Source: Candidatus Hydrogenedentota bacterium (GTDB lineage Bacteria > Hydrogenedentota > Hydrogenedentia > Hydrogenedentales > JAEUWI01). Taken from it: a stretch of 53,100 bases of DNA. Position 1 is the stretch's first letter. Each line of letters opens with the position of its first letter. Under the pieces are notes generated by a model. That model was not told the origin of the DNA. It did not search any database and saw only the letters and a program-made list of their open reading frames with translations. The stretch is taken from contig JAUIMA010000001.1 of assembly GCA_030432675.1 (NCBI GenBank), positions 1 through 53,100 of the forward strand. Reading direction: 5' to 3'. Both the position numbers and the translations under genes were made by a program. This document shows positions 20,676 to 42,599 of the stretch, piece by piece.

Positions 20676-20693
20676 TTTCCCTTCAAACGCTGG

Positions 20694-21197: not shown

Positions 21198-21300
21198 TAT
21201 TCTAAATTCTCAATTTATTATGCCGGCGGGCCGCCGGCGCTCCATAGAATTCCCAATTCTAAATTCACAATTCACTATTCAAAATTCATTATTCTAACTT
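21189..21300. repeat. inverted-orientation copies of the AT-rich module plus a GC hairpin
   Basis: ATTCACTATTC at 21192-21202 and 21270-21280. GCCGGCG-GGC-CGCCGGC at 21222-21238. Overlaps the 5' end of the 4HB gene and abuts the 3' end of the PQQ dehydrogenase gene. Confidence 0.8.
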
Positions 21301-21302
21301 CT

Positions 21303-23426: not shown

Positions 23427-23466
23427 ATCATGTCCCTTTCTGTTTACGCAGTCACTTGCTCGGCGC

Positions 23467-23563
23467 GATGGGCCGTATGGGGCCTATGGGTCGTATGACG
23501 TTCTCAAAGGACACCACTTGCCCCGCAGGTATCATACGACCCATTGGCCCCATACGTCCCACA
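23467..23563. repeat. long imperfect hairpin built from 9-nt periodic units (diverged member of the GTGGGAC family)
   Basis: GATGGGCCGTATGGGGCCTATGGGTCGTATGAC (23467-23499) pairs with TCATACGACCCATTGGCCCCATACGTCCCAC (about 23532-23562). About 30-nt loop. Lies between two minus-strand genes. Confidence 0.8.
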
Positions 23564-23571
23564 AACTTTCC

Positions 23572-24723
23572 TCACTCGGCCGCCAGCGTACCTATCAGCC
23601 ACCCATACACCGAGTCGCCAATTTGAAGATAGCCCGTGCCCGCCGGGTGCACACTGTTATTTTGCCGCGTCACTTCCACATCATTCCGGCTGTTCGCCGG
23701 GCCCGTGCTGGTGGGATAGTTCCGCACACAGTCCAGGTTAATATAGGCCGGGATGAGACTGATATGTTCGCCGTCACGGCCGCCATAGCTCTCGGCCATA
23801 CGCTCCACGACCCGATGCTGATTGCGGCGATACTGCCAACGGGTCTGATTGTTCCTGTAGTTCGCCCCAAAGGCATCCTGACTCACCGTGGGGGGTACGG
23901 GCGCAAGGAGCCCGATTTTCGTGTCCGGGTTCACGCCGTGTATCTGGGCGATGAGGGCGTCCAAGTGGCCAAACATCGCGTCGATAACGCCTTCAATGTT
24001 GTCGTCTTTGGCGCTGAAGGTATCGTTGCAGCCCAGGAACAGGGTCACCACATCGGGCGCCACGCCACCGTTCACCTCCGCACAATAGCGACCATAGTCG
24101 AGCCCGACTTCACCGGCTTCATTCTTGTAGACAAAGGGGCTGGGACGTTCCTTGTAGGGCGCATCGCGGGGGGCCTCGGTGTAGTGGGTGGCGAAACGGG
24201 CCGCCGTCCAGCCGCCATAGCCCTCGTGGCGATTCCGCTTGTCTTCCTTCGGCGCATGACTGCCCACCAGGGTCAGGTTCGGCGTATCGTCGGTAGCGCA
24301 GAAATCCACCAGCGCCTGGGTGTAGATGGAGGCATGGGTGAGGCTGTCGCCAATGACCAGGGCCGATACGGCGCGGTCTTTCAGGGTCGCCGGGTCCGTC
24401 ACCACCACGGTGCTGCTACCCTCGGCGATGACCGCGTTGCTCTGATTGAAAACCCGCAGTTTCAGTGCGTAGTGGCCCACCTCCTCCACCTTGGGCGTAT
24501 AGGTCCAGCGCTCGGCCTGTTGAATGCCCACGCCGCAGTCCACATCAAAGGCATAGTTATTGGCATTGAGGACCAACACCACGTTGTCGAAGTAGAGATT
24601 GGCCTCCACCCCCGGCGTGGCGTAAATCGTGGTCGGCATAGACAACCGCACGGGTGCCGATTCGGCCCCGGCCACCCCCGCGATTGAGAGAAAAGACAAG
24701 AGCAAAACACGTACAAGCAACAT
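23572..24723 (-). CDS. secreted SGNH/GDSL-family hydrolase
   Basis: ORF 23572-24795. Likely start is ATG 24723 (MLLVRVLLLSFLSIAGVAGA signal peptide). Block I VIGDSLTHA, block III LFLGCNDT, block V-like NSVHPAG. Confidence 0.8.
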   Translation of the reverse strand: MLLVRVLLLSFLSIAGVAGAESAPVRLSMPTTIYATPGVEANLYFDNVVLVLNANNYAFDVDCGVGIQQAERWTYTPKVEEVGHYALKLRVFNQSNAVIAEGSSTVVVTDPATLKDRAVSALVIGDSLTHASIYTQALVDFCATDDTPNLTLVGSHAPKEDKRNRHEGYGGWTAARFATHYTEAPRDAPYKERPSPFVYKNEAGEVGLDYGRYCAEVNGGVAPDVVTLFLGCNDTFSAKDDNIEGVIDAMFGHLDALIAQIHGVNPDTKIGLLAPVPPTVSQDAFGANYRNNQTRWQYRRNQHRVVERMAESYGGRDGEHISLIPAYINLDCVRNYPTSTGPANSRNDVEVTRQNNSVHPAGTGYLQIGDSVYGWLIGTLAAE

Positions 24724-25018
24724 GGGATACCTCCGGGATACTACGCCACACGATGGGAAGCTACCCATGCTAGCGTGTGCCCCCGCAGATTGCAATGCTG
24801 TCGGGAGTCAGGCGGTGGGTTAGGCGTCCCCGCCGGACTAAAGACCCACGGAGGCCATCCCGGGCACGGGCTGTGGGGAAGGAGACGTAGTCGTTATACG
24901 ACATCCCGCCATCCAGTGGGTTCCACAACATGCCATGACAAGCGGGACGCTTATCCCACTAAAAAGCCGGGGCCACCTCCCCCAAAAAGGAAGACAGCCC
25001 CGGCTCCAAAGGTATTAC

Positions 25019-26416
25019 TTACCCGGGAATCTCCGTCCGCAGGTGCATGCTCTTCAAGCGCGTAAAGCCCAGCAGGCCATAGGTCGACAGGGTTGCGCCA
25101 CGGCCCGTGTCTTTCACGCCGCACCAGGGCAAGGCGGGGTCGAGGCAGTCGCAACGGTTCATGAAGAAGGTGCCCGTCTCAATCTGCTCGCCAATGCGAA
25201 TGGCCCGCTCGGTGTCGCTGGTCCAGATGGAGGCCGTCAGGCCATAGGGACTGTCGTTCATGTATTGAATGGCCTCTTCATCGCTGGAGACTTTGCAGAT
25301 GCCAATGACGGGCCCAAAGCTCTCTTCCTGCATGAGGGAACACTCCTGGGGCGCATCGGCCACCACGGCGGGTGCCAGGAAATAGCCCTTCGACGGCGTC
25401 GTGAATTCATCGGGCGAAACCACCAGGCGCGCACCGGCGGCCACGGCATCCTGCACCTGCTGCTTCAGGAAGGGAATGGCGCCCTTGGAGGCCAGGGGCC
25501 CGAGGCTTGTCTTTTCATCCGTGGGGTCACCCACTACGTATTCGCGGGCTTTGGCGGCATAGGCTTCCACGAACTTGTCGTAGATGGGCGCTTCCACGTA
25601 AATGCGCTCCACGGCACAGCAGGACTGACCCGCGTTGTAAAAGGCGCCGTCCACACAGTTGGCGACGGCCCAGTCGAAATCGGCATCGGCGCACACATAG
25701 GCCGGGTCTTTACCGCCGAGCTCCAGGCCCACTTCCACAAAGCGGTCGGCGGCACTGCGGTTGACCTGACGTCCACCAGACACAGACCCCGTAAAGGAAA
25801 CGTGGTCTACGCCGTTGTGTTTAATCAATAACTCGGTCACGCTGTGGTCTGCCGCGATGGCCTGCACGAGTCCCTCGGGCGCACCGGCGGCACGGAAGGC
25901 ATCTTCAAAGGCCGTGGCACAGAGGGGCGTCTTGCTGGAGTGCTTGACGATGACCGCGTTGCCCGCAAGCACAGCCGGTACCACGACATTCACGGCAATC
26001 ATAAGGGGGTAGTTCCACGCGGCAATATCGAGCACGACACCCAAGGGCTCGTGACGAATGTATCGGGTAAAGCCTTCCTTTTCCGGGAGCACATCATCGG
26101 CCAGGGTTTCGTCGGCAATGGCAATCATGTGATTGCCCCGCTCTAAGACCCCGCCGATCTCGCCTTTCGCCTGGCCCAGGGGCTTGCCCATCTGCGCCGT
26201 AACCGCAGCGGCTACCTCGTCGCCGTTGGCCTCAAACCAGGCCAGGGCCCGTTCGCACAGGGCCTTCCGTTCGCCCAGGGGCGAGGTGCGCCAGCCCACA
26301 TAGGCTTCGCGGGCACGGGAGACAACCCTATCGACCCCTTCGGCGGCGAGGCCTTCGACGGTGTAGACCACTTCTTCGGTGGCGGGACTGATAACTTCAA
26401 TGACAGTACTGGCCAT
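25019..26416 (-). CDS. NAD(P)-dependent aldehyde dehydrogenase family protein
   Basis: 465 aa. LELGGKDP, catalytic-Cys region NAGQSCCAVERIYV and EESFGPV. Confidence 0.92.
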   Translation of the reverse strand: MASTVIEVISPATEEVVYTVEGLAAEGVDRVVSRAREAYVGWRTSPLGERKALCERALAWFEANGDEVAAAVTAQMGKPLGQAKGEIGGVLERGNHMIAIADETLADDVLPEKEGFTRYIRHEPLGVVLDIAAWNYPLMIAVNVVVPAVLAGNAVIVKHSSKTPLCATAFEDAFRAAGAPEGLVQAIAADHSVTELLIKHNGVDHVSFTGSVSGGRQVNRSAADRFVEVGLELGGKDPAYVCADADFDWAVANCVDGAFYNAGQSCCAVERIYVEAPIYDKFVEAYAAKAREYVVGDPTDEKTSLGPLASKGAIPFLKQQVQDAVAAGARLVVSPDEFTTPSKGYFLAPAVVADAPQECSLMQEESFGPVIGICKVSSDEEAIQYMNDSPYGLTASIWTSDTERAIRIGEQIETGTFFMNRCDCLDPALPWCGVKDTGRGATLSTYGLLGFTRLKSMHLRTEIPG

Positions 26417-26690
26417 GATAAACCTCGTTTGCTTGGCAGGCGATCACCGGGGAAATTCGACGAAACAAAAAGGATGGAGCCGTGATCGCGGGCCACATCG
26501 CTATCCGCTCTGGGTGGAGGGAAGTGCGCAGAACGCGCGGGGTGCGGCACCCAGAAACCGTGGGCTAAGTATACGGCAGCGTCCAATTTCCGCGCAACAT
26601 GGCCCGTTTGCAAAGCTACTGGTGAAGCGTTACCATGGTGAAAGGGAATGCTGTTTTCACCGTGTACAATATCTGGAGAGAGGTATTATC

Positions 26691-28193
26691 GTGGCTGTTT
26701 TTTTAATGGGTACGGGTGCGCAGCACTCGCTTCAAAATGTCGTTGCACTCTTGGAAAAACAGCTACTAAGGACACAGGGTGTCCCCCGGCGCATCAACGC
26801 CTGGAGTGGCGATTTCCGACTGGAGGCAGAGCGGCCAGATTTTGATGCCCCTTTTTCGCGCTTTGCCGTGTACTTACCGAAGAGCTGGCCCGACGTTGGG
26901 GCACTGGAAGAAAAGACCCGGGGACTCGCGCCCTATGGTACCGTCTCGCACAATGAGGACAACGTCCAGTTTTCCTTCGTACCACCGGAAGGCGAAGGCC
27001 CTGAAAAAAGCCTGGAGGCCTTCGATTCCTTCGCGGCCGAACTGACCCTGCCCGAAGTGTGGCGGGCCGAGGGCGACAAATACCGCTTGGATCACATCAG
27101 CGCCGAACTGCTGTTCAAGGCCATCATTCAATATCGCGCCAGCGATGTGCACTTGTCCCCCGGGGTAAGTCCCGTATTTCGAATCGACGGCGAAACCCGC
27201 TCCTCTGATCTCCTCGGGCCCCTGTCGGCCGTTCAGATTGAGAGCCTGATTCGCGAGATGTCCCTCGACGAAGCGTGGAAAGAATTCGAAACCACCCGGC
27301 AAACCAGCTTTAACTACCATCAATCGGGGCTGGGCTATTCCCGGGTCTCGGCCTTCGTCAAATCCGGCGCACCCCATTGCACGATTCGCTTCTTGCCGGA
27401 GACCATCCCCAGTTTCGAAGAACTCCACGTGCCCAAGGACACCATGGTCAAGCTGGCGGAGCTCCACCGCGGACTGCTTCTGGTCACCGGCATGACAGGC
27501 AGCGGCAAGACCACCACCGTGGCCGCCCTCATCGATTGGATCAATTCGACCCGTTCCAGTCACATCCTCACTATCGAAAACCCCATCGAATTTGTGCACA
27601 CCAATAAGAAGTCTATCGTCTCCCAACGAAACCTCGGCATGGATGTGGACTCCTTCTATGACGCGGTGACGGGTGCGCTACGGCACGATCCGGATGTCAT
27701 TCTCATTGGTGAAATGCGGGACCCCGACACCATCCGCTCCGCCATCAACGCAGCGGCCACCGGCCACCTGGTGGTGAGCACGCTCCACGCCAACACGGCG
27801 GCCGAAGTGGTGAACCGAGTGCTCAGCTTCTTCGATCCCGTCGAGCGTGACTTGGTGAAACTTCAGCTGCGCGACTGTCTCCAGTGTGTCATCTGCCAGC
27901 GACTCGTGCCCAAACTCGGGGGCGGGCGCATCCCGGCTCTCGAAATGATGCTCAACGATGTAAAGGCCATCGCGGACGGCATTATGGAAGGCAGCACGGA
28001 CCATATCCGCATCGGCATGCAGCAGACCGTCTCCCACTCTTTCCTCTTCGAGCACTATCTCCACAACCTGTTAAAGCAGCAGAAAATCGATTTGGCCCAC
28101 GCCCAGGAGTTTGCCACCGATCAGAGTATGCTCGATCAGATTCGGATGGGTACCTATGCCGTACCCCGCCTGGAAGGGGTACGCGGCCACTAA
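26691..28193 (+). CDS. PilT/PilU-family hexameric ATPase with about 150-aa N-terminal extension
   Basis: ORF 26379-28193. The 5' part overlaps the ALDH start and is unlikely to be coding. GTG 26691 is preceded by GGAGAGAGG; the alternative is ATG 26706. Walker A GMTGSGKTTT, Asp box HILTIENPIEF, Walker B DPDVILIGEMRD, His box TGHLVVSTLHAN. The PilT N-domain begins near ELLFKAIIQYRASDVHL. Confidence 0.85.
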   Translation: MAVFLMGTGAQHSLQNVVALLEKQLLRTQGVPRRINAWSGDFRLEAERPDFDAPFSRFAVYLPKSWPDVGALEEKTRGLAPYGTVSHNEDNVQFSFVPPEGEGPEKSLEAFDSFAAELTLPEVWRAEGDKYRLDHISAELLFKAIIQYRASDVHLSPGVSPVFRIDGETRSSDLLGPLSAVQIESLIREMSLDEAWKEFETTRQTSFNYHQSGLGYSRVSAFVKSGAPHCTIRFLPETIPSFEELHVPKDTMVKLAELHRGLLLVTGMTGSGKTTTVAALIDWINSTRSSHILTIENPIEFVHTNKKSIVSQRNLGMDVDSFYDAVTGALRHDPDVILIGEMRDPDTIRSAINAAATGHLVVSTLHANTAAEVVNRVLSFFDPVERDLVKLQLRDCLQCVICQRLVPKLGGGRIPALEMMLNDVKAIADGIMEGSTDHIRIGMQQTVSHSFLFEHYLHNLLKQQKIDLAHAQEFATDQSMLDQIRMGTYAVPRLEGVRGH

Positions 28194-28273: not shown

Positions 28274-29794
28274 TCAGCCGGCCGACGTCACCCCCGCATC
28301 GAGGGCGGGCACCCCGTCTTCTGTTTTGGCGGGCGCGGGCGGAGGCGTTGCCGCCTTCTTACGCGCCAGGTGCCGCAATCGGTGGATGATGATCGCCTCA
28401 TTGCGAATAGAGACGGTCAGCGCAATCATGAACCAATAGGGTTCCATGATTCGAACAATCAGGAAGGAGATGGTGCCGAAGGAGTGCACGATGAGCGCGG
28501 CCGTAGCACCAAACATCCCCAACGCGATTCCCCGCGCCATCCAATCTTCAGTCCAGCGATAGGCCTGCCGGGTGGTCCGCAGCACCTGAAACAACAGGAA
28601 CACGAAAGCCACCAGCCCCACCACACCGGTTTCAAGCAACACGCGGGCATATTGGCTGTCCAGCACCGACTCCCACGACACACCGCCTCCGAAGAAAAAG
28701 AACTGGGGCCCGAGACTAAGGATGAATCCGACCTTCCGCCACACGTGCACCCGCTCGTAGGTGGACTTATCCACATTCACGCCGAGATCACGCCCCGCCA
28801 CCACCAGCTCGCGCCCGCCATCTTCTTGTATCGTATAGGCCACCCGCTCGATAACGGCCGTCGGCATGATCAGCGTCGAGGAAGCCAACAGCAATGCGAT
28901 AACTGCCAGAATGAAGTACTTGCGGCTCATGAGAGCGATCACGGTAAAGCCCACCAAGAGAGCGACGTATGAAGCACGCGATAGGGTGTAGAGCAAGGGT
29001 ATGAAACCCGCGCTAACGAGTAAAAAATACATACACTTGATGCGTATTTTCTTCGCCTGCAACGCCAATCCCAAGGCGACGCACAGGCAAATGACCAGGT
29101 AACCCCCGAGGGTGTTGGGCTCGGTGCCCCCCTTTTCAAAGGGTGCACTCACCCGGGGCGTTGTGCCAATGCTGTAAATGCCATAACAGCTCACGATCAG
29201 CATGACGATAAAAAACAACCCAATCGGGGCCCGGAGGTCTTTCGATGCCCGCACCGAGTGGGCCACCATGAAGAAGATAAGATAAAACTCCAACATCTTC
29301 AACATGACAAAGAAAGCGGTCCGCTTATCCCACGCGGGCAAGCTGCGCTCATAGGCCAGCAACGTGGCGAAGACACACACGGCAAAATAGGCCACAATAC
29401 CGGAATTGATAGGACTCGGCTGCCAGAGCGCCAAGCGCCCTTCGAAGGTAAGTTTGATCATGACACCAATGAAGATGACGATAATCAACAAGTCATCGTA
29501 GCGGATGTTCAGACTTCGATCGCCGTTGGCCGCAGGCCGCAATTCGATCTCCGGCGACAGCAACATGGCAATCAGGAGGATAAATAGACCGAATTCGACC
29601 CGAACCACCGTGCCACCGAAGACCACCATGCTGATGGCCAACGCTGCCGTGAGGCTGTCATTGCCGAGCACCAGGTGCTGGGCAACCAGCATCACGCTGC
29701 TGACGAGCATGAACGCGGCAAAAATCGGGACTTCCAGTTGACTCTCGGCAACTTCACCACGACCGATTCCGCGTTCTGATCGGAAGAATGCCAT
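28274..29794 (-). CDS. Wzy / O-antigen-ligase-like polymerase (multi-pass membrane protein)
   Basis: 506 aa, about 11-12 TM segments. LLYTLSRASYVALLVG and DSQYARVLLETGVVGL resemble the Wzy_C / O-antigen ligase signature. Last gene of the envelope operon. Confidence 0.78.
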   Translation of the reverse strand: MAFFRSERGIGRGEVAESQLEVPIFAAFMLVSSVMLVAQHLVLGNDSLTAALAISMVVFGGTVVRVEFGLFILLIAMLLSPEIELRPAANGDRSLNIRYDDLLIIVIFIGVMIKLTFEGRLALWQPSPINSGIVAYFAVCVFATLLAYERSLPAWDKRTAFFVMLKMLEFYLIFFMVAHSVRASKDLRAPIGLFFIVMLIVSCYGIYSIGTTPRVSAPFEKGGTEPNTLGGYLVICLCVALGLALQAKKIRIKCMYFLLVSAGFIPLLYTLSRASYVALLVGFTVIALMSRKYFILAVIALLLASSTLIMPTAVIERVAYTIQEDGGRELVVAGRDLGVNVDKSTYERVHVWRKVGFILSLGPQFFFFGGGVSWESVLDSQYARVLLETGVVGLVAFVFLLFQVLRTTRQAYRWTEDWMARGIALGMFGATAALIVHSFGTISFLIVRIMEPYWFMIALTVSIRNEAIIIHRLRHLARKKAATPPPAPAKTEDGVPALDAGVTSAG

Positions 29795-29862
29795 GCCTGT
29801 CCCTTATCCTGTCCACACGGCGCGGCCACCGTGAAGGTGTCGGCCGGAAAACGCGCAATCGC

Positions 29863-32109
29863 TTAGAAGTGGTACCACTTGCGGCGCCCTGACGACCCGT
29901 CATCGTAGTAGTAGTAATAGTAGTAGTAGTGCCGACGGGTGGTTTCCAGTCCGTTTACCACCACACCCGCCACAGCCACCTTGGCCGTCGAGAGCAGCTT
30001 CTTCGCTCGAATGACCGTTTCGCGGCGCGCATTATTGGTTGATACGACCATCATGCAGGTGTCCACATGGGTCGCCAATAAGACCGGGTCTGTTACCACG
30101 AGCACCGAGGGCGCATCACAGATAACCAGATCAAAGGAAGCACCCAACTGGTCCATCAATTCCGCCATGTGGTCGGAACCAATCAACTCCGAAGGATTAG
30201 GGGGCACCCGTCCACTCGAAATAATCCAGAGGTTGTCTATCCGTGTCGGCCGAATGACGCTCTTCGAATCCAGTCCTTCGCGCAACACGTCGGCCAGACC
30301 CGGCCCACGCTCCATACGCAAGACGCGGTGCACATTGGGACGACGCAAGTCGGTGTCCACAATCAGGACCCGCATGCCGCGGTCGGCCATGGTAACCGCA
30401 AGATTTACCGCCGTCGTGGTCTTGCCTTCACCCGGCACGGCACTCGTCACCATCACCGTCTGGGGCTTGTCCTTAATGGTGGCAAACTGAAAGTTCGTCC
30501 GCAGGGTACGGTACGCTTCGGAGATGGGTGACTTGGGGTCGTGTTGGGTGACGATGCAGGAGTCGATTTGCTCCTCATCCACCGTGCTGACATAGGTCGC
30601 CCGCCGTCGTCGGCCACCCCGAGGCCGACCGAAGCGCATCCGCGGAATGGTACCGATCACTTCGAGGCCGATGTATTCGTTCACATCTTCGATGCTTCGA
30701 ATGGAAGTGTCGTTGTACTCGGTGACCATCGCAAAAACGAACATCACGATAAACCCGATGAGTCCGCCGATAGCAAAATTAACCCACTGCTGACGACTGC
30801 CGGGGACCCCCATAGGAACCGCCGATGCAATCGCGTCCTTCCGCTCCACGGAGCCCAGGCCCCGCTCGATATCCCGCCGAATCTCCATCTCCCGATCCGA
30901 GTACTGATTGAGCCGGGTCTCGATATTCTCCACTTCCCGCTTGAGCCGGTCCGAATCCACCTTGAGGTTGGCCAACTCGGGCACGCGGGGAATCAATTCC
31001 TCCCGCTCTTTCTTGATGGCTTGCTCACGCAACTCCAAGCCCGTCATCTGCAGGCGAATTTCAATCTGCTGACGATAAATCTCGTTGCGCTTCACCCAGA
31101 TATCACTGCCCCCGGGAACGCCCGAAGACTTTTGCTTCTCCGCCTCGAGGATAAGCGCCTGAGTCTCCGCGATGAGTTCTTCCAATTCAATCAGGCGCGG
31201 CCAGCTCGGTTGGTAAATCGCGCTAAGGGTCAGCTTCTCCTCCAGCAGTTTATCCAGATCCGCGAAAAGGCCGGTCACCAAATTGTCACTCGGCTGATTC
31301 AAGGACTCCGAAAACTGCTCGGAAGCCAATGCGAGTTCCGCATCCAGTTTATTCAATTTCTGCGTTGCGGCCACTTTGCTGACTTCGATTTCGCGCAGTT
31401 CCCGCTCTTTCTCGGCCAATCGCTGATCGATGTCTTCATAGTCCTGAAAACCATGGGCCTGCATGAATTCCAGCCGCGCCTGTTCCGCTTCGGCCAAATC
31501 GTCGCGAAGAGACTGAATGATTCCAACGGCATCTTCATGGCTATGTTGGGCCAACTCCAGATGGCGGTGGCGATTTACCTCCAAAAAGGCACGGGTGGCA
31601 AACTCAGCAATCGCATTCGCTTCTTCGGCCGTTTCGCAACGCTCCACATTGATATCGATGTACTGGTCGCCCTGGGCCGAAATCGAAATCTTACTCTGAA
31701 CCGAGGCGGCCAGCGAACGAAACTCCGCGGGAGAGACCACGTTACTGGTTCGACCGCCCGAAGCCACATCCGTCTGAATCATGGCGCGGGCCACCTCTTC
31801 CGCAAGCGTATTCAGACTCGTGCGTTCCACAAGACTTCCCGCCGTCATCACATAGGGAGAAGGGGGAGAATTGGTCATGATCCGGCTGGAGCGGCCATCG
31901 GCGACCACCAATTTACCGGAGGTCCGATACATCGTCTCGGCCGTTTCCTGGGTATACCACGCCACCCCACCAAAGGCCAGGGCACCAAACAATGTACCCA
32001 ACAGGAGGAGGAGCCAGCGATCAGAAAACACGTTCCAGACGTAGCGGAACTGGTTGTCCTGATTTTCCCGTGTGGTGTCTTCCAATACAGGCGCGTCTAT
32101 ACTCGACAT
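29863..32109 (-). CDS. polysaccharide co-polymerase / bacterial tyrosine autokinase (Wzc/GumC-like)
   Basis: 748 aa. Two TM segments flank a long coiled-coil region. Walker A SAVPGEGKTTTAVNLA, Walker A' LIVDTDLRRP, Walker B DLVICDAPSV. C-terminal tyrosine cluster HYYYYYYYYDD. Confidence 0.9.
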   Translation of the reverse strand: MSSIDAPVLEDTTRENQDNQFRYVWNVFSDRWLLLLLGTLFGALAFGGVAWYTQETAETMYRTSGKLVVADGRSSRIMTNSPPSPYVMTAGSLVERTSLNTLAEEVARAMIQTDVASGGRTSNVVSPAEFRSLAASVQSKISISAQGDQYIDINVERCETAEEANAIAEFATRAFLEVNRHRHLELAQHSHEDAVGIIQSLRDDLAEAEQARLEFMQAHGFQDYEDIDQRLAEKERELREIEVSKVAATQKLNKLDAELALASEQFSESLNQPSDNLVTGLFADLDKLLEEKLTLSAIYQPSWPRLIELEELIAETQALILEAEKQKSSGVPGGSDIWVKRNEIYRQQIEIRLQMTGLELREQAIKKEREELIPRVPELANLKVDSDRLKREVENIETRLNQYSDREMEIRRDIERGLGSVERKDAIASAVPMGVPGSRQQWVNFAIGGLIGFIVMFVFAMVTEYNDTSIRSIEDVNEYIGLEVIGTIPRMRFGRPRGGRRRRATYVSTVDEEQIDSCIVTQHDPKSPISEAYRTLRTNFQFATIKDKPQTVMVTSAVPGEGKTTTAVNLAVTMADRGMRVLIVDTDLRRPNVHRVLRMERGPGLADVLREGLDSKSVIRPTRIDNLWIISSGRVPPNPSELIGSDHMAELMDQLGASFDLVICDAPSVLVVTDPVLLATHVDTCMMVVSTNNARRETVIRAKKLLSTAKVAVAGVVVNGLETTRRHYYYYYYYYDDGSSGRRKWYHF

Positions 32110-32112
32110 AGC

Positions 32113-33591
32113 CTAGTCCTTCCGCACTTCCGCTCGGGCTTCAAGGGCCGCCAGAAAGGGATCCGTATGACCGAAGCCATCCATATCCAGACTGCGCTCC
32201 CAACGAATGTCTTCCGGCCGATCGTGAATGGTGGGTGTCACAAATATCATCAGCTCGCGGCTGGTGCGTGTGCGCTCTTTGTGTTTAAAGAGATTTCCGA
32301 AAATTGGAAGGTTGCCCAAGCCCGGAAGCTTCTGGATTACCGTATGATTGTCGGCCATCACAATGCCACCAATCACGAGTGACTGACCATCTCGTACAAT
32401 GCGTTGGCTGTTACTGCTACGCAGGGCGCGAACGGGCACCCCGTTGGAAACACCTACCGCCGTGGACACCTCGGGGGCCAGCTCGACCAGGACATACCGT
32501 CCGCCATCCGGGTCACGACGCACGTGGGGCACCACTTCCAGGACGATACCAATCTCCAGGAATTGCACATTCTCGACGGACGAGAAGCCCGCCGTGCCGA
32601 CTTCGGAATAGGGAAATTCTTCGGTCATACGAATCGTCGCCGGCTTGTGGTTTACGGTACCCACATAGGGGGATGCCAACAGTTCGGCCTTGTCATCGGC
32701 CACCAGGGCATCAAGCATTACGCCCAGATCAATGCCACTGTTCATATAACCCATAAACATCTGGCCGGGAGCCGCCACCTGAACCGGCACCTGGAGACGG
32801 CGATCAAAATCCCCTTCATCAAGGAAACGGCGACTCAATCCACCGCCCCGATTCCCCGTGTCGAGTGACTCATTAAACTCGGGGCCTACCGACTGGCGGA
32901 TCGAAGTCAACACCGCATCCTGCCGCGGCGGAGGCGTATAGCCACCACCCGCATGATCGCCCTGAACAAACCAGCGGATGCCGAGTTCCTTGGCCGCAGC
33001 GGTTTCCACTTCGACGATCTTGGACTCGATTAACACCTGCGTAATCTGGGACTCCATCTGGTCCAATTCGTGAATAACAGAAATCATGTTCTGCAGGATC
33101 CCCGATTCGTCCGTCAGAATCAGGCTGTTGGTATTGGGGTCGAAACTTACACTGCCACCTGCCGACGACATTCCGTTCAGGGCTTTCTCCAGGCCACCGG
33201 CATCCGCGTTGTTCAACGGGATAACCTTGGTCTGCATGGATTGGGTACGCATGACACCACCGGGAAGGGCCATGGCGCCCTCGATGCTACGAGAAACGGT
33301 CACCCGCGGATTCTTCAAAATGCTCTTGAATCCCATGGAAACCCGCGCACCCGCGTCGTTCAGACTCAGCCCCTTCAGCGTCACGTTGCCAATATAGGGC
33401 AATTCCACATTGCCCTTGCTGTCCAGCTGGGTCGTCGTCGACAATTCCGGCTGACGATGGACGTTGATGTACACCAAGTCCCCGGGAGTCAGGAAATCCT
33501 CTTTCATCGTTTCCGCTGCGGCGGGTATGATACCGAGGCACAGGCTGACGATAGAAAGAACGAGGGTGAACCGCGTTGACAGGCTTAACAT
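32113..33591 (-). CDS. outer-membrane secretin with N-terminal Wza-type Poly_export domain
   Basis: 492 aa. Signal peptide. GDLVYINVHRQPELSTTTQLDSKGNVELPYIGNVTLKGLSLNDA...NPRVTV is Poly_export-like. KVIPLNNADAGGLEKALNGM...SFDPNTNSLILTDESGILQNMISVIHELD is Secretin_N-like. The C-terminus GGIVMADNHTVIQKLPGLGNLPIFGNLFKHKERTRTSRELMIFVTPTI is the secretin signature. Confidence 0.85.
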   Translation of the reverse strand: MLSLSTRFTLVLSIVSLCLGIIPAAAETMKEDFLTPGDLVYINVHRQPELSTTTQLDSKGNVELPYIGNVTLKGLSLNDAGARVSMGFKSILKNPRVTVSRSIEGAMALPGGVMRTQSMQTKVIPLNNADAGGLEKALNGMSSAGGSVSFDPNTNSLILTDESGILQNMISVIHELDQMESQITQVLIESKIVEVETAAAKELGIRWFVQGDHAGGGYTPPPRQDAVLTSIRQSVGPEFNESLDTGNRGGGLSRRFLDEGDFDRRLQVPVQVAAPGQMFMGYMNSGIDLGVMLDALVADDKAELLASPYVGTVNHKPATIRMTEEFPYSEVGTAGFSSVENVQFLEIGIVLEVVPHVRRDPDGGRYVLVELAPEVSTAVGVSNGVPVRALRSSNSQRIVRDGQSLVIGGIVMADNHTVIQKLPGLGNLPIFGNLFKHKERTRTSRELMIFVTPTIHDRPEDIRWERSLDMDGFGHTDPFLAALEARAEVRKD

Positions 33592-33652
33592 GAGTTTTCA
33601 CTCCACAGGGTTATTTGATTCCGGGTCGCCTTAATGGGGAGCCGGTTATAGA

Positions 33653-35683
33653 CTACTGGGCTGGTGCTGCCTCGGTCGCTTCCGCGTTTCCTTCGGAAGC
33701 CTCCGCAGGTTCCGGTGTCGTCATGACGGCCGGATACTCATCAGCCGCATTCTCTTCACGACTTTCAACACCGGGCTCTGACATCATTTCGCCCGACATT
33801 GTTTCCGGCGTTGCTTCGGGAGCGGCTACCGGCGTATCCGGGACATTTTCCACATCCGAGGGCATCACAGGATTTGCCTCATCCGTACCGGCATCCGATT
33901 CTTCGTAGCTCAGCCATTCCAGATTTTTTTGCAACTCTGCCTTCATGCTCGGCTCGATGCCAGGCACCTGGATAGCACGCTGCCAATAGGTTGCTGCGGT
34001 TTCCATGAAGGCATCCCGATTCGCATCGGAAGTAGCCAAATCGGCGCGGATTTTATACAGCTCGCCGAGACTTCGAAAATCTTCATCCACGGTATAATTT
34101 CCCGGGAGAAAAGCAGCCTGAAGATACGCACTCTCTGCCGCTTCATACTCGGACTTCTGACTGTAAGCCCGGGCCAGGTAGCGCAGCATGGTCAACGCCG
34201 CCTGGGGGTCATTGGCGGGATCGGCCTGGTCCCGGAGCATATCAATGGCCTTATCATAGTCGCCCAGCTCGTAATAGAGCCGACCCATGATCGTTTCCGC
34301 CCGGGTCCGTTTGCGATGCAACGGGTTTTCCTGAATGAACGTAGCAAACCGCTCTACTGCGGCGGTGTAACGACGCCGCATTTCGTCTCGCGAGCGGATA
34401 TCGCCCAGGGTCAGGGCGTAGGCCGCGCGAAACTGGGCATCGGCCGCCGCTACGGGGTCCGCACCCACCTTATGGGCCAGGCTGTCATAGGCCCGAGACG
34501 CTTCCGGGTATTTGCCCTCTTTCATCAGGCGGCTGGCTTTTACTTCGAGATCTTCCGCCCGCTGTAGCACGGGGGCCACGACGTAAACGTATCCGGCCAC
34601 TACCCCCCCAATCAGGACAACCAATAACACGATCATGCGAACCACTTTGCCCGCCCGGCGTCCGCCACGGGTATGGCGTTTCGAACGACGGCGGGCTGGC
34701 GCCGCACTGTAGTCGTAAGACAAATCGGCGTCCATATCGACCGATGTGGGGCTGGTCGCACTGTAGGTTGGCAATAAACTCGGGGCAGGTGCTGCCGGGG
34801 TGGTCGGCGCAGTGGCCTCTTGCGGAGGACGCTTTCCAAGGGTCTGCATCAACTGCTCCGCTTCCGCGAGCGCTTCCCGTGAAGGCACTTTGGGCGATGC
34901 TTCGGGTGGCGCTGGTGTCGACGCGGGCTCCTCCGCTGGGGCCTCCTCGATAGCATTAACGCCTTCCGCGACGGAGTCCAACAAGGAATCCCAATCATCC
35001 GTCAGTGACCCATCCGCCTCAGGAACGGGCTCGGCAGGCCCATCGGGGGTCGATGGCGTGGCAGGGTCACCTGTCGGCTCCTCTGGCTGTGCACTGACTT
35101 CTTCAATCTGCTCCAACAGCGCCAACAAATCGGCTGACGGTGAAGACTCCTCCTCCGGTTCCGCAGGCACTTCTGCCGGTGAGGCCAATGGGGTCGTCGT
35201 CCGCACATCGTCGGGCGGCTCCGGGAATCCCGATTCCAGGCCCGCGACGATGTCCTTGAAGGCATCAACGGAGGAGCTCGGGGCGGGCGCACTCCCGCGC
35301 AGGGTATCGCTTCCGCGGTCGGGCACAAGATTACTATCCAGCGAGACATCCGAAAGCCCACCCGCGCCGCCATCATTTCCGTCGTCCACGTCAGACACGC
35401 CCTTTTCATAAAAACTCAGGGGTGCAGCGGGGTTGAGATCATCGTCACTCACGGAATCTTCGGGCTCGGAAACGGCCGGTGCCCCGTCCCGAATGGGAGC
35501 CCGTGTAAGGCCCGACATTTGAATGAAATCCAGGGAATTAGCGCGCTGCCCATCGGGCACCCCACTGCCAAAGCGGTCGTCATCGGGCATGCCCGCCAGC
35601 AAGTCACCGTCGATCGCATCGGCCGTAAAGGGATCGCTCCCTTCGCCGGAAAAGTCTTGCTCCTGTTCGGCACCTGACGCCAT
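33653..35683 (-). CDS. TPR-repeat bitopic membrane protein with acidic/Pro-rich disordered regions (MshN/PrsT-like role?)
   Basis: ORF 33653-35773. ATG 35683 lies 1 nt after the ATPase stop; the alternative ATG 35704 overlaps it. The N-terminal ~340 aa are D/E/P/A/S-rich. TM segment VVRMIVLLVVLIGGVVAGYVYVV. TPR-like helices follow (KYPEASRAYDSLA, GDYDKAIDMLR, SEYEAAESAYLQAA). Acidic tail. Confidence 0.75.
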   Translation of the reverse strand: MASGAEQEQDFSGEGSDPFTADAIDGDLLAGMPDDDRFGSGVPDGQRANSLDFIQMSGLTRAPIRDGAPAVSEPEDSVSDDDLNPAAPLSFYEKGVSDVDDGNDGGAGGLSDVSLDSNLVPDRGSDTLRGSAPAPSSSVDAFKDIVAGLESGFPEPPDDVRTTTPLASPAEVPAEPEEESSPSADLLALLEQIEEVSAQPEEPTGDPATPSTPDGPAEPVPEADGSLTDDWDSLLDSVAEGVNAIEEAPAEEPASTPAPPEASPKVPSREALAEAEQLMQTLGKRPPQEATAPTTPAAPAPSLLPTYSATSPTSVDMDADLSYDYSAAPARRRSKRHTRGGRRAGKVVRMIVLLVVLIGGVVAGYVYVVAPVLQRAEDLEVKASRLMKEGKYPEASRAYDSLAHKVGADPVAAADAQFRAAYALTLGDIRSRDEMRRRYTAAVERFATFIQENPLHRKRTRAETIMGRLYYELGDYDKAIDMLRDQADPANDPQAALTMLRYLARAYSQKSEYEAAESAYLQAAFLPGNYTVDEDFRSLGELYKIRADLATSDANRDAFMETAATYWQRAIQVPGIEPSMKAELQKNLEWLSYEESDAGTDEANPVMPSDVENVPDTPVAAPEATPETMSGEMMSEPGVESREENAADEYPAVMTTPEPAEASEGNAEATEAAPAQ

Positions 35684-35684
35684 A

Positions 35685-36704
35685 TCAGCCCAATCCCTGA
35701 TCATGTCTGGCCCGCGCGGATCGCAACAGCAAATCGGCCGCGCGCTGATCGCGCGACTGCTGATCCCGCACATTTCGCTCCCGAATACCGCCTGGGGCCA
35801 CCGGCGTTACGGGGGCGGGTGGCCGGGCAGATGCCCCGATAGCTGCCGCAACGCGGGCACGCTTTTCGGGATCGGGTAACGTGGTCTTCTCTATCGTATG
35901 TAACACTATATCGTGCGTTATGCGCCTGGTCTTTAGCTGGGCCGCCAATAGAAGGGCATTTCGACACAGGGTTACCATGACACGAGGACTTCCTTCGGCG
36001 TAGGCGTGGATGGCCCGCAGGGCGCCCTCTTCAAACTCGGGGCCCGTGCCCGGCTGGGCTCCCGCCTGCTGTAAGCGAAAGGCAATAAACTGCTGGGCCT
36101 CATCAAAATCGATGGGTTCCAGCGTATAGGTCAGGTTGATCCGTTGCTCAAAATTGGGTGCGGCCTGTAAGACCTGCATCCATTCCAGCTGCGCAAAGAA
36201 CACCAGGTTCAGTAATTTGTGTTGCTGGGTTTCCAGATTCTGCACCAGCCGGAGCAACTCCAGTTGACCGCGCTTATTCAGATTCTGCGCATCGTCAATG
36301 ATGAGTGTGCAAATCCGATCCCGATTTTCCAGGAGATGCTGGTTCAACGCCTCCATATAGGCCACGAACGATTGCTCCGCAGGGCGCAGACCAAATTGAG
36401 CCACGATACTCTCCAGCAGGGCAAAACTGGTCCAGGAGGGTATGGGCGATCCGATCACCGCCGTAAGATAGCGATCCGGATCGGCCGCCATCCCCGTCAT
36501 CAGCTTACGCAGGAGGGTCGTCTTGCCCGTACCATAATTCCCGAGCACGACTGCGATCCCGTGAGAAGCATCGATACCATTCCACAGACGGTAGAGGCAC
36601 TCTTTGTGGCCCCGGGTGGCGTAAAAATACACCGGGTCTGCTGTGGGAGCAAAAGGCTGCTCCGCGAGACCCAACTGACGTAAATAGGTTTGCGTTCCAT
36701 CCAT
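35685..36704 (-). CDS. ExeA/GspA/MshM-like AAA+ ATPase (no peptidoglycan-binding tail)
   Basis: ORF 35685-36869. Family-typical start at ATG 36704 (MDGTQTYLRQLGLAEQPFAPTADPVYFY). Walker A LGNYGTGKTTL. Walker B LIIDDAQNL. Confidence 0.85.
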   Translation of the reverse strand: MDGTQTYLRQLGLAEQPFAPTADPVYFYATRGHKECLYRLWNGIDASHGIAVVLGNYGTGKTTLLRKLMTGMAADPDRYLTAVIGSPIPSWTSFALLESIVAQFGLRPAEQSFVAYMEALNQHLLENRDRICTLIIDDAQNLNKRGQLELLRLVQNLETQQHKLLNLVFFAQLEWMQVLQAAPNFEQRINLTYTLEPIDFDEAQQFIAFRLQQAGAQPGTGPEFEEGALRAIHAYAEGSPRVMVTLCRNALLLAAQLKTRRITHDIVLHTIEKTTLPDPEKRARVAAAIGASARPPAPVTPVAPGGIRERNVRDQQSRDQRAADLLLRSARARHDQGLG

Positions 36705-37178
36705 GCGCGTATGCCTGTTCCAATCGGTGTAGATTTGCCAAGCCCTCTGCACGCGGTATAGGACACACCGCCGTTCAGAGCGCCCCCAATACAGAGGGGA
36801 CCACAACATAGGGGGCATCCCTGCACCCTGAATCGCGATCTTGGCTACTGTGGGTAGACCTGCCGCCACTGCGCACCGCGACGAAACGGTTTCGTCACGA
36901 AATCCGACCCACTCCGGGGCCTGTAAATCACACCAACGCAGCAGCTAAGCAATTGATTTCAACCGATCTAGCCACTCCTAATAATACTCCTGCAAAACAG
37001 GACTGTCAACCGATTACCGGTGCGGCCCAAATTTTTGGTCGGCCACCGGAAACCCCGTAAGCTGCGGAAAGAACGAATTTCGAGACCCTATGGACGATGG
37101 GACGCAGATAATGACCCCGTGCCCTTGCTATACTGCGGCCTCAATTTGCCCCCGAAAACAGCCTCACAGGAGTTAACG

Positions 37179-40874
<3,696 letters not shown>

Positions 40875-40911: not shown

Positions 40912-41790
40912 TTGGACAAATCAGAAGCAAAGAAGGTCTTTCGAGAGGCGGACACCCTCTACGAGCAGGGCCAATACGACGCGGCATTGCACCTGCTGCA
41001 ACGGTTGAACCGTGAATTCCCCCGTCAGAAGCACATCATGTATTCCGCCGCCCTCTGCCTGGAACAACTCGGCCGTGCCCAGGAATCCATCGCACTGTGC
41101 GAACAACTCATCGAACGCTTTCAGGATGACCGCGCCGAAATAATTCTCAGTCGCTTCGCCGGTGAAGAGGCCCCCGAGCCACCGGTCATCACCCCCAGTG
41201 GCTCACGGCGCCTCACGACCGATGACCGCCGTCTCATCGCCATGCTCATGCAGGACCCTGAAACCATGACGCCCCTGCCAGCACGCCGTGGGTCTGACCG
41301 CATTCTCCTTTACAGCATTGGCGTGATTGCCCTGGCATTGACTATCGTAATAGCGGCGGGTGCCTTTGTGTTTTACGCGCCCGGCGCGGGCCCATCCACG
41401 GGCATCTCCCTCAGCACCAACGGCGACACCCTCACCCTCGGGCAGGTCTTCGTCATTTTCCTGGCCACCAGCTTCGCCGCCAACACGGTGGCCATGTTCG
41501 TCCTGCTGGCCCTCATGGGACACCAGCGCTACGAGTCTCCGGTGGACAATGTCTTCGACGTCATGCAATATGCGTTCTACGTCAGTTTGCTCTTGTGCAT
41601 CCCCGTACTTGGCTGGATCGCCATCCCCCTTATGCTCCGACGACATTACTTTTTCCCCATGGGAGAACTCTTCCTCTTTCTCCTCCTGCAGACGGTCATG
41701 GCCACGGGCTTCGCCATTATCTTCGGAGCCATCATGCTACTCCTCGGATACGGCTGGGTATTCTCCAACCTCGCCGACGCGGCCGCCTGA
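40912..41790 (+). CDS. TPR-like N-terminal domain membrane protein (4-5 TM)
   Basis: 292 aa, TTG start in the track. The N-terminus ADTLYEQGQYDAALHLLQRLNREFPRQKHIMYSAALCLEQLG is TPR-like. The C-terminal half is hydrophobic. Paralogous to the N-terminus of 42144-42599. Confidence 0.65.
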   Translation: MDKSEAKKVFREADTLYEQGQYDAALHLLQRLNREFPRQKHIMYSAALCLEQLGRAQESIALCEQLIERFQDDRAEIILSRFAGEEAPEPPVITPSGSRRLTTDDRRLIAMLMQDPETMTPLPARRGSDRILLYSIGVIALALTIVIAAGAFVFYAPGAGPSTGISLSTNGDTLTLGQVFVIFLATSFAANTVAMFVLLALMGHQRYESPVDNVFDVMQYAFYVSLLLCIPVLGWIAIPLMLRRHYFFPMGELFLFLLLQTVMATGFAIIFGAIMLLLGYGWVFSNLADAAA

Positions 41791-42143
41791 CAAGGCCAGC
41801 TTATAGCACTACAAAGGTGCCGCCCTTACGGACGTGAGGTACGGGGACTGCCTCGACGTCGTCCACCCTGCCCCACGCATACCAACCCCGGGGCCAACGG
41901 GTCCCCCTACCCCCGTAACACGACCGCAACCGTCGGAGACGTCCCCCTCCCCATGACGCTCTGGTTCCTTCCAGAGGGGGACAGCCTCGCCTTCCGAGAT
42001 ACCGCCTCCTGAAAATGACAATGGTTGAACACCACAGTTTTTACCTTACTGCGTCGCGATTGAAGTCGAGGCAGTCCCCGGAAGTTGCGCCCCGTCCCGG
42101 CCTGTCGTATTATTTGGGGTGCGCACATCGCACGAGGATACTT

Positions 42144-42599
42144 ATGGAACGACATATCGCCCAGAATAAGTTCGGCCAGGCCGACCTCCTGTTCCAACAG
42201 GGACGTTTCGACGAATCCCTGTCGCTCTTGGATGAATTAGACCAGGCCTTTCCGAATTCACCCAACGTGATGTTTCCCCGGGCACGGTGTCTTCTGGAGA
42301 TTGGGGAGACCAACGAGGCCCTCGACATCCTTGATGAATTGGCGCTCCAGCACCAACATCAGGAAGCCATCGAGCTCAAGAGTGAAGTCGCCGATGCCCT
42401 CATCACCCTGACCCAGCCGGTTCAATCGGAGGCCCGTCACCGGGATGGCCCTACACCGGATCAGGTAAAGGCCGCACGGTCATCCAGTCACGCGGGCAGT
42501 GTGCCGGAGATTACCGGCAACCGGATAGTCTTCGTGGTGGTTGGATTAGGCTTGCTGATCGTGTTGCTGGGCATCGTGCTCGTGGTGGTCGCCCAATAA
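42144..42599 (+). CDS. TPR-like N-terminal domain protein with single C-terminal TM
   Basis: ORF 42015-42599. ATG 42144 is preceded by GAGGA. ADLLFQQGRFDESLSLLDELDQAFPNSPNVMFPRARCLLEIG aligns with 40912-41790. C-terminal TM IVFVVVGLGLLIVLLGIVLVVV. Confidence 0.65.
   Translation: MERHIAQNKFGQADLLFQQGRFDESLSLLDELDQAFPNSPNVMFPRARCLLEIGETNEALDILDELALQHQHQEAIELKSEVADALITLTQPVQSEARHRDGPTPDQVKAARSSSHAGSVPEITGNRIVFVVVGLGLLIVLLGIVLVVVAQ

Follow-up and report, generated by a model that had tools for sequence, protein, structure and literature searches.

Polysaccharides of Wzx/Wzy-type pathways are thought to cross the outer membrane through Wza-type helical barrels or, in myxobacteria, through a short outer-membrane polysaccharide export (OPX) protein that works with a separate porin, and the canonical job of secretins is the export of folded proteins. 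Here we describe a five-gene operon in a stretch of 53,100 nucleotides from a Candidatus Hydrogenedentota bacterium (assembly GCA_030432675.1, contig JAUIMA010000001.1, positions 1 to 53,100; the window). Its secretin is a chimera, made of a signal peptide, the D1 domain of Wza (Poly_export), one Secretin_N domain and a complete secretin barrel. The five genes probably make up the polymerisation and export core, reaching across the envelope, of a Wzx/Wzy-type exopolysaccharide (EPS) pathway, possibly an exosortase-related one, in which the outer-membrane channel would be a secretin docked on Wzc through D1.

Several described systems share parts with this operon. In the E. coli Wza-Wzc complex, cryo-electron microscopy has shown that the forearm of the Wzc helical arm contacts Wza D1, and deletion of D1 abolishes the colocalisation of Wza and Wzc (PMC12881504). 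Class-3 OPX proteins have no Wza_C helix and use a beta-barrel for the passage through the outer membrane (bioRxiv 10.1101/2022.02.11.480155). Whether secretins can be true polysaccharide conduits is a question that was raised recently for slime nozzles: cyanobacteria and myxobacteria need GspD and PilQ for their slime secretion (PMC12475490). This is a functional precedent for polysaccharide export through a secretin, although the nozzles are ordinary type II secretion system (T2SS) or type IV pilus (T4P) secretins and OPX fusions are not mentioned in that paper. For the placing of secretins, ExeAB are known to bind peptidoglycan and the ExeD secretin and to assemble ExeD (PMC4098917). Finally, the founding paper on PEP-CTERM proteins leaves their crossing of the outer membrane unexplained, and describes the tetratricopeptide repeat (TPR) protein PrsT, with its lipoprotein signal, as part of a regulatory trio (PMC1569441). 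Literature searches turned up neither an OPX-secretin fusion nor this operon; the architecture is visible in the databases under automatic names.

The five genes lie on the minus strand. An initial annotation of the window had placed all of them correctly, and its spacings are confirmed: 1 nt between the ATPase and TPR genes, 61 nt from TPR to secretin, 3 nt from secretin to wzc and 68 nt from wzc to wzy. In the direction of the contig, the operon and the promoter-like site ahead of it are as follows.

28274-29794, minus strand: Wzy-like gene, 506 aa
29863-32109, minus strand: Wzc-like gene, 748 aa
32113-33591, minus strand: secretin (chimera) gene, 492 aa
33653-35683, minus strand: TPR gene, 676 aa from the ATG at 35683
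35685-36704, minus strand: ATPase gene, 339 aa from the ATG at 36704
36981-37009, minus strand: sigma-70-like promoter, TTGACA-17-TATTAT (11/12), upstream of the ATPase gene

The initial annotation divided this operon into a secretin-assembly module and a polysaccharide module without a Wza. This division has to be given up, as the exporter is both OPX-like and a secretin: a search with hidden Markov models, which that annotation had proposed, found a Poly_export match on the secretin that it had missed. The domains of the chimera, from the N-terminus, are the following.

33292-33498, minus strand: Poly_export / Wza D1 with a PGD motif, residues 32-100 (PF02563, E 5.7e-15, cut-off 28 bits)
33046-33231, minus strand: a single Secretin_N, residues 121-182 (PF03958, E 2.7e-13)
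32227-32709, minus strand: secretin barrel, residues 295-455 (PF00263, E 8.7e-34, cut-off 27.5 bits)

All three matches are above the Pfam gathering scores (55.7 bits for Poly_export, 50.3 for Secretin_N and 117 for Secretin), and the PF00263 match spans model positions 1-167 of 169. By these families the protein is a member of the secretin superfamily and OPX-like at the same time. Solved structures divide it in the same way. In a profile search the N-terminal domain matches Wza/OPX structures and the C-terminal two thirds match GspD and PilQ, with E-values from 1e-48 to 1e-35 (for the barrel, 4.5e-48 to GspD 5wq7 and 1e-42 to PilQ). Foldseek superimposes D1 on the M. xanthus class-3 OPX protein WzaB (9n9a) with a root mean square deviation of 0.8 A over 70 columns at 31% identity, and on E. 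coli Wza (2j58) with 1.3 A over 80 columns; the matches to Wza and WzaB range from 0.8 to 1.4 A overall. The similarity to 9n9a is also found by phmmer (E 2e-6). The secretin part matches GspD, PilQ and InvG in Foldseek at E about 1e-12, and the Secretin_N domain matches structures of the N-terminal periplasmic domains of GspD and HofQ. D1 and Secretin_N are joined by a linker of about 20 residues, in which the AlphaFold confidence score (pLDDT) is below 50 at residues 103-113.

The chimera has no Pfam match to N0 (PF21305), STN (PF07660) or AMIN (PF11741), whereas ordinary secretin relatives do carry domains of this type. It likewise has no Pfam match to SLBB or Wza_C, although ordinary OPX matches do have SLBB. 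Its signal peptide ends in AAA-E and the cysteine at residue 18 is not conserved, so that it does not carry the lipoprotein signal of class-1 OPX proteins. The models of individual secretin families all score well under their cut-offs: 184.5 bits for GspD (TIGR02517, equivalog, cut-off 351.35), 178.7 for PilQ (TIGR02515, subfamily, cut-off 284.35) and 84 for MshL (TIGR02519, equivalog, cut-off 250.2). By its scores the fusion belongs to the secretin superfamily but lies outside the GspD, PilQ and MshL families. With GspD and PilQ, its best structural matches, it shares a complete secretin domain and an N3-like Secretin_N, but it has none of N0, N1/N2, STN and AMIN and is coupled to Wzc and Wzy and not to GspC-M or PilM-P.

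On the polysaccharide side, the protein resembles the outer-membrane partner of E. coli Wzc in its Poly_export D1, the domain that the Wzc arms contact there (PMC12881504). Since D1 is in contact with Wzc in E. coli, the piece of Wza kept by the fusion would be the piece that docks on the polysaccharide co-polymerase (PCP). In contrast to Wza it has no D2/D3 (SLBB), no amphipathic helix barrel (Wza_C) and no lipoprotein signal, and carries Secretin_N and a secretin beta-barrel instead. D1 is closest to WzaB in sequence and fold, and like the class-3 proteins WzaB, WzaX and WzaS of M. xanthus, which work with the porin Wzp, the fusion is an OPX D1 module that has no Wza_C helix and relies on a beta-barrel. 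Unlike in that system, the barrel is present in cis; it is that of a secretin, which is multimeric, where M. xanthus uses a PgaA-like porin that is monomeric. The fusion also has no SLBB. By analogy, the system may resemble the class-3 OPX and Wzp arrangement even more than the Wza-Wzc translocon.

The C-terminal tail of the fusion (32113-32220, minus strand, residues ~458-492) contains the conserved residues W464, R466, L468, E488 and R490 and a predicted amphipathic helix at residues 478-490. A pilotin or the TPR partner may use this tail as an S-domain-like segment.

The gene that follows the fusion encodes a Wzc-like protein which scores above the cut-off of TIGR01007 (178.9 against 108.05 bits) and so falls among the bacterial tyrosine kinases (BY-kinases). 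Its Walker A motif (GEGKT) is at residue 560, and eight consecutive tyrosines stand at residues 728-735 (29905-29928), near the C-terminus. Two transmembrane (TM) segments (32-50 and 445-463) enclose a predicted periplasmic domain of about 395 aa, which is the topology expected for a PCP-2a protein. The alignments to the Wzc model PRK11519 (E 3.9e-48) and to the chain-length model TIGR03007 (E 1.5e-14), both below cut-off, span this predicted periplasmic part; Pfam Wzz and GNVR were not detected in the window's copy. We therefore describe it as a putative PCP-2a protein with a cytoplasmic kinase and every BY-kinase hallmark. The putative PCP-2a Wzc, its kinase and tyrosine-rich tail, and the presence of a putative Wzy-family protein in the operon are all features of the E. 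coli system for group 1 capsule and colanic acid, but no Wzb phosphatase is found in the window.

The Wzy-like protein has about 11-12 TM segments by hydropathy and a large loop at about 316-384. Its match to Wzy_C (E 4e-4, 20.6 bits) is below the cut-off of 31.7 bits. Over its full length it is 27% identical (E 3e-40) to a protein of the Auribacterota locus L164, to which it is clearly orthologous, and the orthologues in L083, L163 and L164 carry precomputed Wzy_C matches. As a polymerase and a ligase are indistinguishable from such a sequence, the label is to be read as Wzy-like / O-antigen-ligase-like. The domain calls of the initial annotation thus stand for the secretin, the BY-kinase and AAA_22, but its TPR and Wzy_C calls fall below Pfam gathering in this copy and are reached by the orthologues.

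The ATPase matches AAA_22 (E 5.4e-18), and has as its best NCBIfam model TIGR03015 (pepcterm_ATPase, E 1.2e-45, 156 bits, cut-off 324.5), a family defined by its association with the XrtA/PEP-CTERM EPS system. A Walker A motif (GNYGTGKT) is found at residue 55 and DDAQ at 137, and no TM segment or PG_binding domain was found. The 339-aa protein is a soluble P-loop ATPase of the GspA/ExeA-MshM or PEP-CTERM-associated kind. It is not a membrane AAA ATPase with a periplasmic peptidoglycan-binding domain, such as the one that the GspA/ExeA-GspB/ExeB assembly factor pairs with a bitopic, secretin-binding partner.

The TPR protein consists of an acidic proline-rich N-terminal region, one TM helix (351-369), a TPR domain and an acidic tail. 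Because the basic cluster RRRSKRHTRGGRRAGK precedes the single TM helix, it is predicted to be a bitopic inner-membrane protein with the N-terminal half in the cytoplasm and the TPR domain in the periplasm. The TPR matches (residues 437-524) are weak, the YbgF-like and BamD-like matches are below cut-off, and the PrsT model TIGR02917 gives no match. Among 38 orthologues, TPR families are found in up to 32, LysM in nine and YfiO/BamD-like matches likewise in nine; the window's own protein has no LysM. Two motifs, DLDFIQMTGLTRP and SFYEKGVxDVD, are near-invariant across the 38 orthologues within N-terminal residues ~35-100. The acidic region around them is otherwise disordered, and the ATPase or the Wzc kinase may dock on them. 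As in GspA/GspB (ExeA/ExeB) and MshM/MshN, the gene of an AAA_22 P-loop ATPase stands beside those of a membrane/TPR partner and a secretin, and the pair can have a peptidoglycan-binding domain, the LysM of nine of the 38 TPR orthologues. It differs from those pairs in that the window's ATPase has no TM segment or PG_binding_1, in that its own TPR protein has no LysM, and in that the pair is incomplete, with no AAA_22 ATPase, in other clades with the fusion.

Signals for expression were looked for in the DNA. The promoter-like site is separated from the ATPase gene by a leader of about 270 nt, and is the only one between 26000 and 37300, where shuffled sequences have 5.1 on average. This call is a consensus match only, in a phylum with uncharacterised promoters. 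No terminator-like hairpin is found in the two larger intergenic gaps (61 and 68 nt), and we count this and the single upstream promoter-like site in favour of the proposed EPS core. Rfam and tRNA scans of the window and the leader gave no match, hence no known riboswitch is seen in the leader. For the TPR protein and the ATPase, the chosen ATGs agree with the orthologues, which align from residue 1 onward. The secretin, wzc and wzy starts each have a Shine-Dalgarno-like sequence ahead of them; that of wzc (GGAAGGA) lies inside the 3' end of the secretin gene, and wzc starts 3 nt past the secretin stop. The position of this ribosome-binding site within the end of the secretin gene suggests a translational coupling of secretin and wzc.

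The chimera is a conserved protein. Its best 120 database relatives all have the same three-domain architecture (120/120). NCBI names the relatives 'polysaccharide biosynthesis/export family protein [Candidatus Hydrogenedentes]' and JGI names them GspD, PilQ or HofQ. These automatic names are misleading, as each covers half of the fusion. In species-representative genomes we find about 50 loci with a full-length relative at 44-96% identity, the closest being JAXMOL010000002.1 with a 96% identical fusion. Below these loci the matches fall to 27-30% identity and begin at residue ~115, and are thus ordinary secretins. Nearly all records are labelled Hydrogenedentota or Hydrogenedentales; the Nitrospirales label of some binchicken metagenome-assembled genomes (MAGs) is unconfirmed. 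When these ~50 loci are searched by tblastn with the window's proteins, the order ATPase-TPR-fusion-Wzc-Wzy given in the initial annotation is kept in every locus with enough sequence, so that the arrangement is not due to chance. The gene maps of the related loci are crude. In all Hydrogenedentota-type loci the PCP gene directly follows the fusion, and the ATPase opens the operon wherever upstream sequence is present (38 loci, by crude open reading frame clustering).

The commonest upstream neighbour is a divergent FHA-GAF-HD(HD_5) regulator, found in 27 loci (e.g. L003:4693-6501), which we guess to be an HD-GYP-type phosphodiesterase of cyclic di-GMP. The window and its two closest relatives lack it and have an oxoprolinase gene in that place (37020-40874 in the window). 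A sigma-54 response regulator sometimes adjoins the regulator. Glycosyltransferases are only occasional beside the Hydrogenedentota-type loci, as for example the GT2 after wzy in L081. No exosortase is found among the annotated genes of the 10-kb flanks of the Hydrogenedentota loci examined, and a search for Hydrogenedentota exosortases with that of L164 as the query returned only its own Auribacterota contig. A regular expression for PEP-CTERM tails found none in the window and ~60 related loci, the exosortase-bearing L164 among them, which is uninformative in view of how crude the pattern is.

The architecture is rare, as an exhaustive HMMER search with the first 200 residues of the fusion against 1.84 billion cluster representatives gave only about 15-20 that match across both D1 and Secretin_N. 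Two of these, P0138 and P0142, are 30-33% identical to the fusion over the full length and have the same three domains. Searches for their close relatives in species-representative genomes and JGI metagenome contigs gave nothing useful, and their context was recovered via protein searches and contig look-ups, which place their relatives within complete polysaccharide clusters. In the P0271-clade locus, the upstream part has GT4 glycosyltransferases, radical-SAM enzymes, a GAF histidine kinase, a response regulator and a TPR protein, and the fusion is followed by a Wzz/GNVR PCP, a separate BY-kinase, Wzm/Wzt and GT2 glycosyltransferases; no exosortase is found within 10 kb. The Auribacterota loci, from Ca. 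Ancaeobacter aquaticus and MAG RA.bin133 (L163, L164), have the order histidine kinase, response regulators, TPR, fusion, PCP, BY-kinase, Wzy_C protein and several glycosyltransferases. After these genes come asparagine synthase in L163 and Exosortase_EpsH and EpsI in L164 (JAKLEM010000005.1, 5336-20756).

In three distant loci, with fusions of 30-33% identity, the PCP gene directly follows the fusion. The TPR proteins of the window and of Auribacterota are only weakly similar, from the TM helix onward (E 2e-5). Because the distant loci have no AAA_22 ATPase, the universal core, as judged from gene content, is TM-TPR / D1-secretin / PCP; a Wzy-like gene follows it in both the Hydrogenedentota and the Auribacterota loci. 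The initial annotation had seen the operon as a self-contained core. This view is no longer tenable, since relatives have glycosyltransferases, Wzm/Wzt or an exosortase beside the same core, and the remaining pathway genes presumably lie in other parts of this genome.

The relationship to the XrtA/EpsH loci of PEP-CTERM systems deserves a closer comparison. Common to both are an ExeA-like ATPase (TIGR03015), a chain-length determinant (TIGR03007), a tyrosine kinase (TIGR03018), a Poly_export protein (TIGR03027), an O-antigen-ligase-like protein and a TPR protein, and the Auribacterota relatives of the fusion adjoin Exosortase_EpsH/EpsI or asparagine synthase. The differences are the secretin as exporter, the absence of an exosortase or PEP-CTERM gene from the window and the 10-kb flanks examined, and scores that stay below cut-off in all four models (in bits, 156 against 324.5 for TIGR03015, 157.8 against 230.65 for TIGR03018, 53.1 against 278.85 for TIGR03007 and 28.1 against 180 for TIGR03027). 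TIGR03097 gave no match among the operon proteins. A routinely annotated XrtA locus was rejected on these scores and with no exosortase within reach, although the kinship is real. We thus treat the operon as kin of the XrtA/PEP-CTERM EPS loci and do not file it as a member. In L164, judged by its annotated genes, an exosortase locus has a secretin chimera for its exporter. The statement of the initial annotation that the exporter in PEP-CTERM loci is Wza-like and not a secretin hence has at least one exception.

The analysis shows which domains the five proteins contain, how their genes are ordered and spaced, that both are conserved, and that relatives have polysaccharide genes alongside; the function proposed here builds on these results. 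Lipid-linked repeat units would be made by enzymes encoded elsewhere in the genome. The Wzy-like protein would polymerise them under the control of the Wzc co-polymerase and tyrosine autokinase, whose periplasmic arms, we infer, engage the D1 domains of the fusion. The polymer would then exit via the gated multimeric pore of the secretin and not via a Wza alpha-helical barrel. In the course of this adaptation the fusion would have lost N0 and most of the N-domains which tie secretins to T2SS and T4P platforms, with Wza D1 in their place. The cytoplasmic AAA_22 ATPase and the membrane-anchored TPR protein could, by analogy with GspA/B or MshM/N, be accessory factors that place or assemble the secretin through the peptidoglycan. 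In the same analogy with ExeAB, the pair may insert or anchor the pore in the wall, to which the LysM domains of nine of the 38 TPR orthologues are a parallel. The initial idea that a polymer made with Wzc and Wzy leaves via the secretin is thus supported, and it is strengthened by the finding that this secretin is fused to Wza D1.

Several points weigh against this proposal. Wza and Wzc are octamers, and the solved secretins matched here have 12-15 chains per entry, which is also the expected stoichiometry of the fusion. The D1 domains of a 12-15-mer would have to match an octameric Wzc, and it is a speculation that the flexible linker of ~20 residues between D1 and Secretin_N could absorb the mismatch. 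The link to a specific polymer is missing, as no flippase, priming transferase or glycosyltransferase is found in the 53-kb window. The absence of the AAA_22 ATPase from the Auribacterota and P0271-type loci weakens a role in secretin assembly, and the TPR protein could be a PrsT-like regulator. In this copy both the Wzy_C and the TPR matches are sub-threshold. The AlphaFold monomer model of the fusion has a low overall confidence (pLDDT 57, with 75-86 in D1) and is reliable domain by domain only, so its inter-domain geometry was not used. Finally, the evidence is genomic and the host phyla, Hydrogenedentota and Auribacterota, are uncultured.

The ATPase and the TPR protein are the part of the proposal with the most serious alternative. 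The export core might work as described, and the two proteins might form a regulatory or scaffolding EPS module, PrsT-like or a switch associated with Wzc, in place of assembling the secretin. This reading has to be taken seriously, since the other fusion clades lack the ATPase, which is hence not an obligatory partner of the secretin; in the Hydrogenedentota-type loci the pair is conserved. A regulatory role would agree with the best model of the ATPase, TIGR03015, from PEP-CTERM EPS systems in whose loci the initial annotation expected Wza-type exporters, with the membership of the TPR protein PrsT in the PEP-CTERM regulatory trio (PMC1569441), with the Auribacterota order, in which a histidine kinase, response regulators and then the TPR gene stand directly upstream of the fusion with no AAA_22 ATPase, and with the divergent FHA-GAF-HD neighbours of 27 loci. 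It fits less well with the LysM and the BamD/YfiO-like matches, each in nine of 38 TPR orthologues, which point to a role in the envelope or at the peptidoglycan, and with the TPR gene being always immediately upstream of the fusion gene. TIGR02917 also does not match, and the TPR protein has a TM anchor where PrsT has a lipoprotein signal. On balance we hold a regulatory or scaffolding pair to be possible, if somewhat unlikely.

Another possibility concerns the cargo. The secretin part may export proteins, either exosortase-processed PEP-CTERM proteins or protein-polysaccharide conjugates, together with or instead of free polysaccharide, and D1 would then only tether the pore. Folded-protein export is after all what secretins canonically do, the fusion shares L164 with Exosortase_EpsH and EpsI, and the four PEP-CTERM-type NCBIfam models are the best or near-best matches for operon proteins; the outer-membrane crossing left unexplained in PMC1569441 would find an answer. 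But no exosortase was found in the window, the crude regular expression saw no PEP-CTERM tails in it or in the ~60 related loci, and the P0271-type locus has Wzm/Wzt and glycosyltransferases with no exosortase within 10 kb. There are also no T2SS-like pseudopilus or platform genes which could push proteins. We regard protein export as improbable. At a similarly low level of belief stands a bolder form of the polysaccharide model: a dedicated wide-bore glycan secretin that would have evolved for a polymer too bulky to pass a Wza channel, either heavily branched or decorated with exosortase-processed PEP-CTERM proteins, with the 12-15-mer docked on the Wzc ring with a symmetry mismatch and placed by the ATP-dependent ExeA-like/TPR-LysM factor. 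If true, it would supply, for some phyla at least, the step at the outer membrane that exosortase systems still lack.

At the downstream end of the operon there are two further features to consider.

26379-28193, plus strand: PilT/PilU-family hexameric ATPase gene with an N-terminal extension (TIGR01420 343.4 bits, cut-off 319.1; T2SSE E 3e-42)
28301-28321, plus strand: terminator-like hairpin after the PilT-family gene

The PilT-family gene is convergent with wzy and lies 80 nt from its stop. Its true start is likely downstream of the listed GTG, as orthologues align from ~residue 65-108, and the N-terminal extension, whose length depends on this start, matches no known domain. The gene occupies the same convergent position in 14 related loci and is absent from most, so its membership in the system is uncertain. 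The initial annotation was right about the absence of glycosyltransferase, flippase, exosortase, Wzb, pilin and GspF genes from the window (Pfam scans of ~35 candidate open reading frames, several of which have no Pfam match at all), but it was wrong to include GspE/PilB in that list, as it overlooked this adjoining ATPase of the T2SSE superfamily; the same scans found no PilM-P, PilC/GspF, PilB or GspC.

With this gene 80 nt away and kept there in 14 loci, with JGI naming the homologues GspD, PilQ or HofQ, and with an MshL-MshM-MshN-like set of secretin, ExeA-like ATPase and TPR protein (MshL model, 84 bits), the fusion could be read as a normal secretin of a pilus or T2SS whose N-domain is a beta-grasp-like accessory. 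It would act together with the PilT-family ATPase, and its synteny with wzc and wzy would carry no functional coupling. This is very unlikely given scores far under the cut-offs of GspD (184 against 351), PilQ (179 against 284) and MshL (84 against 250), the lack of N0 and AMIN matches, a window in which no pilin, PilM-P, PilC/GspF or PilB gene was found, distant fusion clades inside glycosyltransferase clusters, and a PilT-like gene that is convergent and missing from most related loci, while the PCP gene adjoins the fusion in every case. A T2SS or pilus locus was accordingly rejected on the sub-cut-off secretin scores, the missing N0/AMIN, the missing pilus genes and the constant PCP adjacency.

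The neighbouring genes are housekeeping or unrelated genes: aldehyde dehydrogenase, pyrroloquinoline quinone (PQQ) dehydrogenase, oxoprolinase, the pyruvate dehydrogenase complex, pyr genes and dynamin-like GTPases. At 21303-26416 (minus strand) a row of genes encodes a PQQ-dependent dehydrogenase to which a cytochrome c domain is fused, a GDSL hydrolase and an aldehyde dehydrogenase. These genes stay beside the operon in the closest relatives (L001, L005), and their annotation suggests an alcohol/aldehyde oxidation module. The tandem genes at 42604-44241 and 44223-45995 (minus strand) overlap by 19 nt, both have MMR_HSR1/Dynamin_N matches and resemble a bacterial dynamin-like protein pair, adjoined by two small TPR proteins (40912-41790, 42015-42599). 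At 5385-8843 (plus strand) a protein of 1152 aa combines a Ser/Thr protein kinase domain with at least 10 WD40 repeats behind it. Between ~16000 and 21000 the composition shifts, the GC skew changing from -0.12 to +0.12, and GC falls to a local low of 0.556 at 20001-22000. This region contains an HNH endonuclease (16808-17734), a weak sub-threshold match to the 23S rRNA IVP family (18550-19128) and an open reading frame of 392 aa (19497-20675; GC at third codon positions 0.81) with no Pfam or NCBIfam match, and may be a small mobile or defence islet.

For the idea of polysaccharide export through secretins, this natural fusion, which joins a secretin to the domain that contacts Wzc in E. coli, serves as a genetic "Rosetta stone". 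We expect it to surprise specialists of capsule export and of secretins moderately to strongly. In all Hydrogenedentota-type loci examined and in Auribacterota the fusion is always followed by the PCP, which makes a compact construct for experimental studies. Such a construct brings within reach how secretin and PCP are coupled, how the mismatch of 8-fold and 12-15-fold symmetry is dealt with, and what the ExeA-like ATPase of EPS loci does, and glycan export by a secretin could be tested on it directly.

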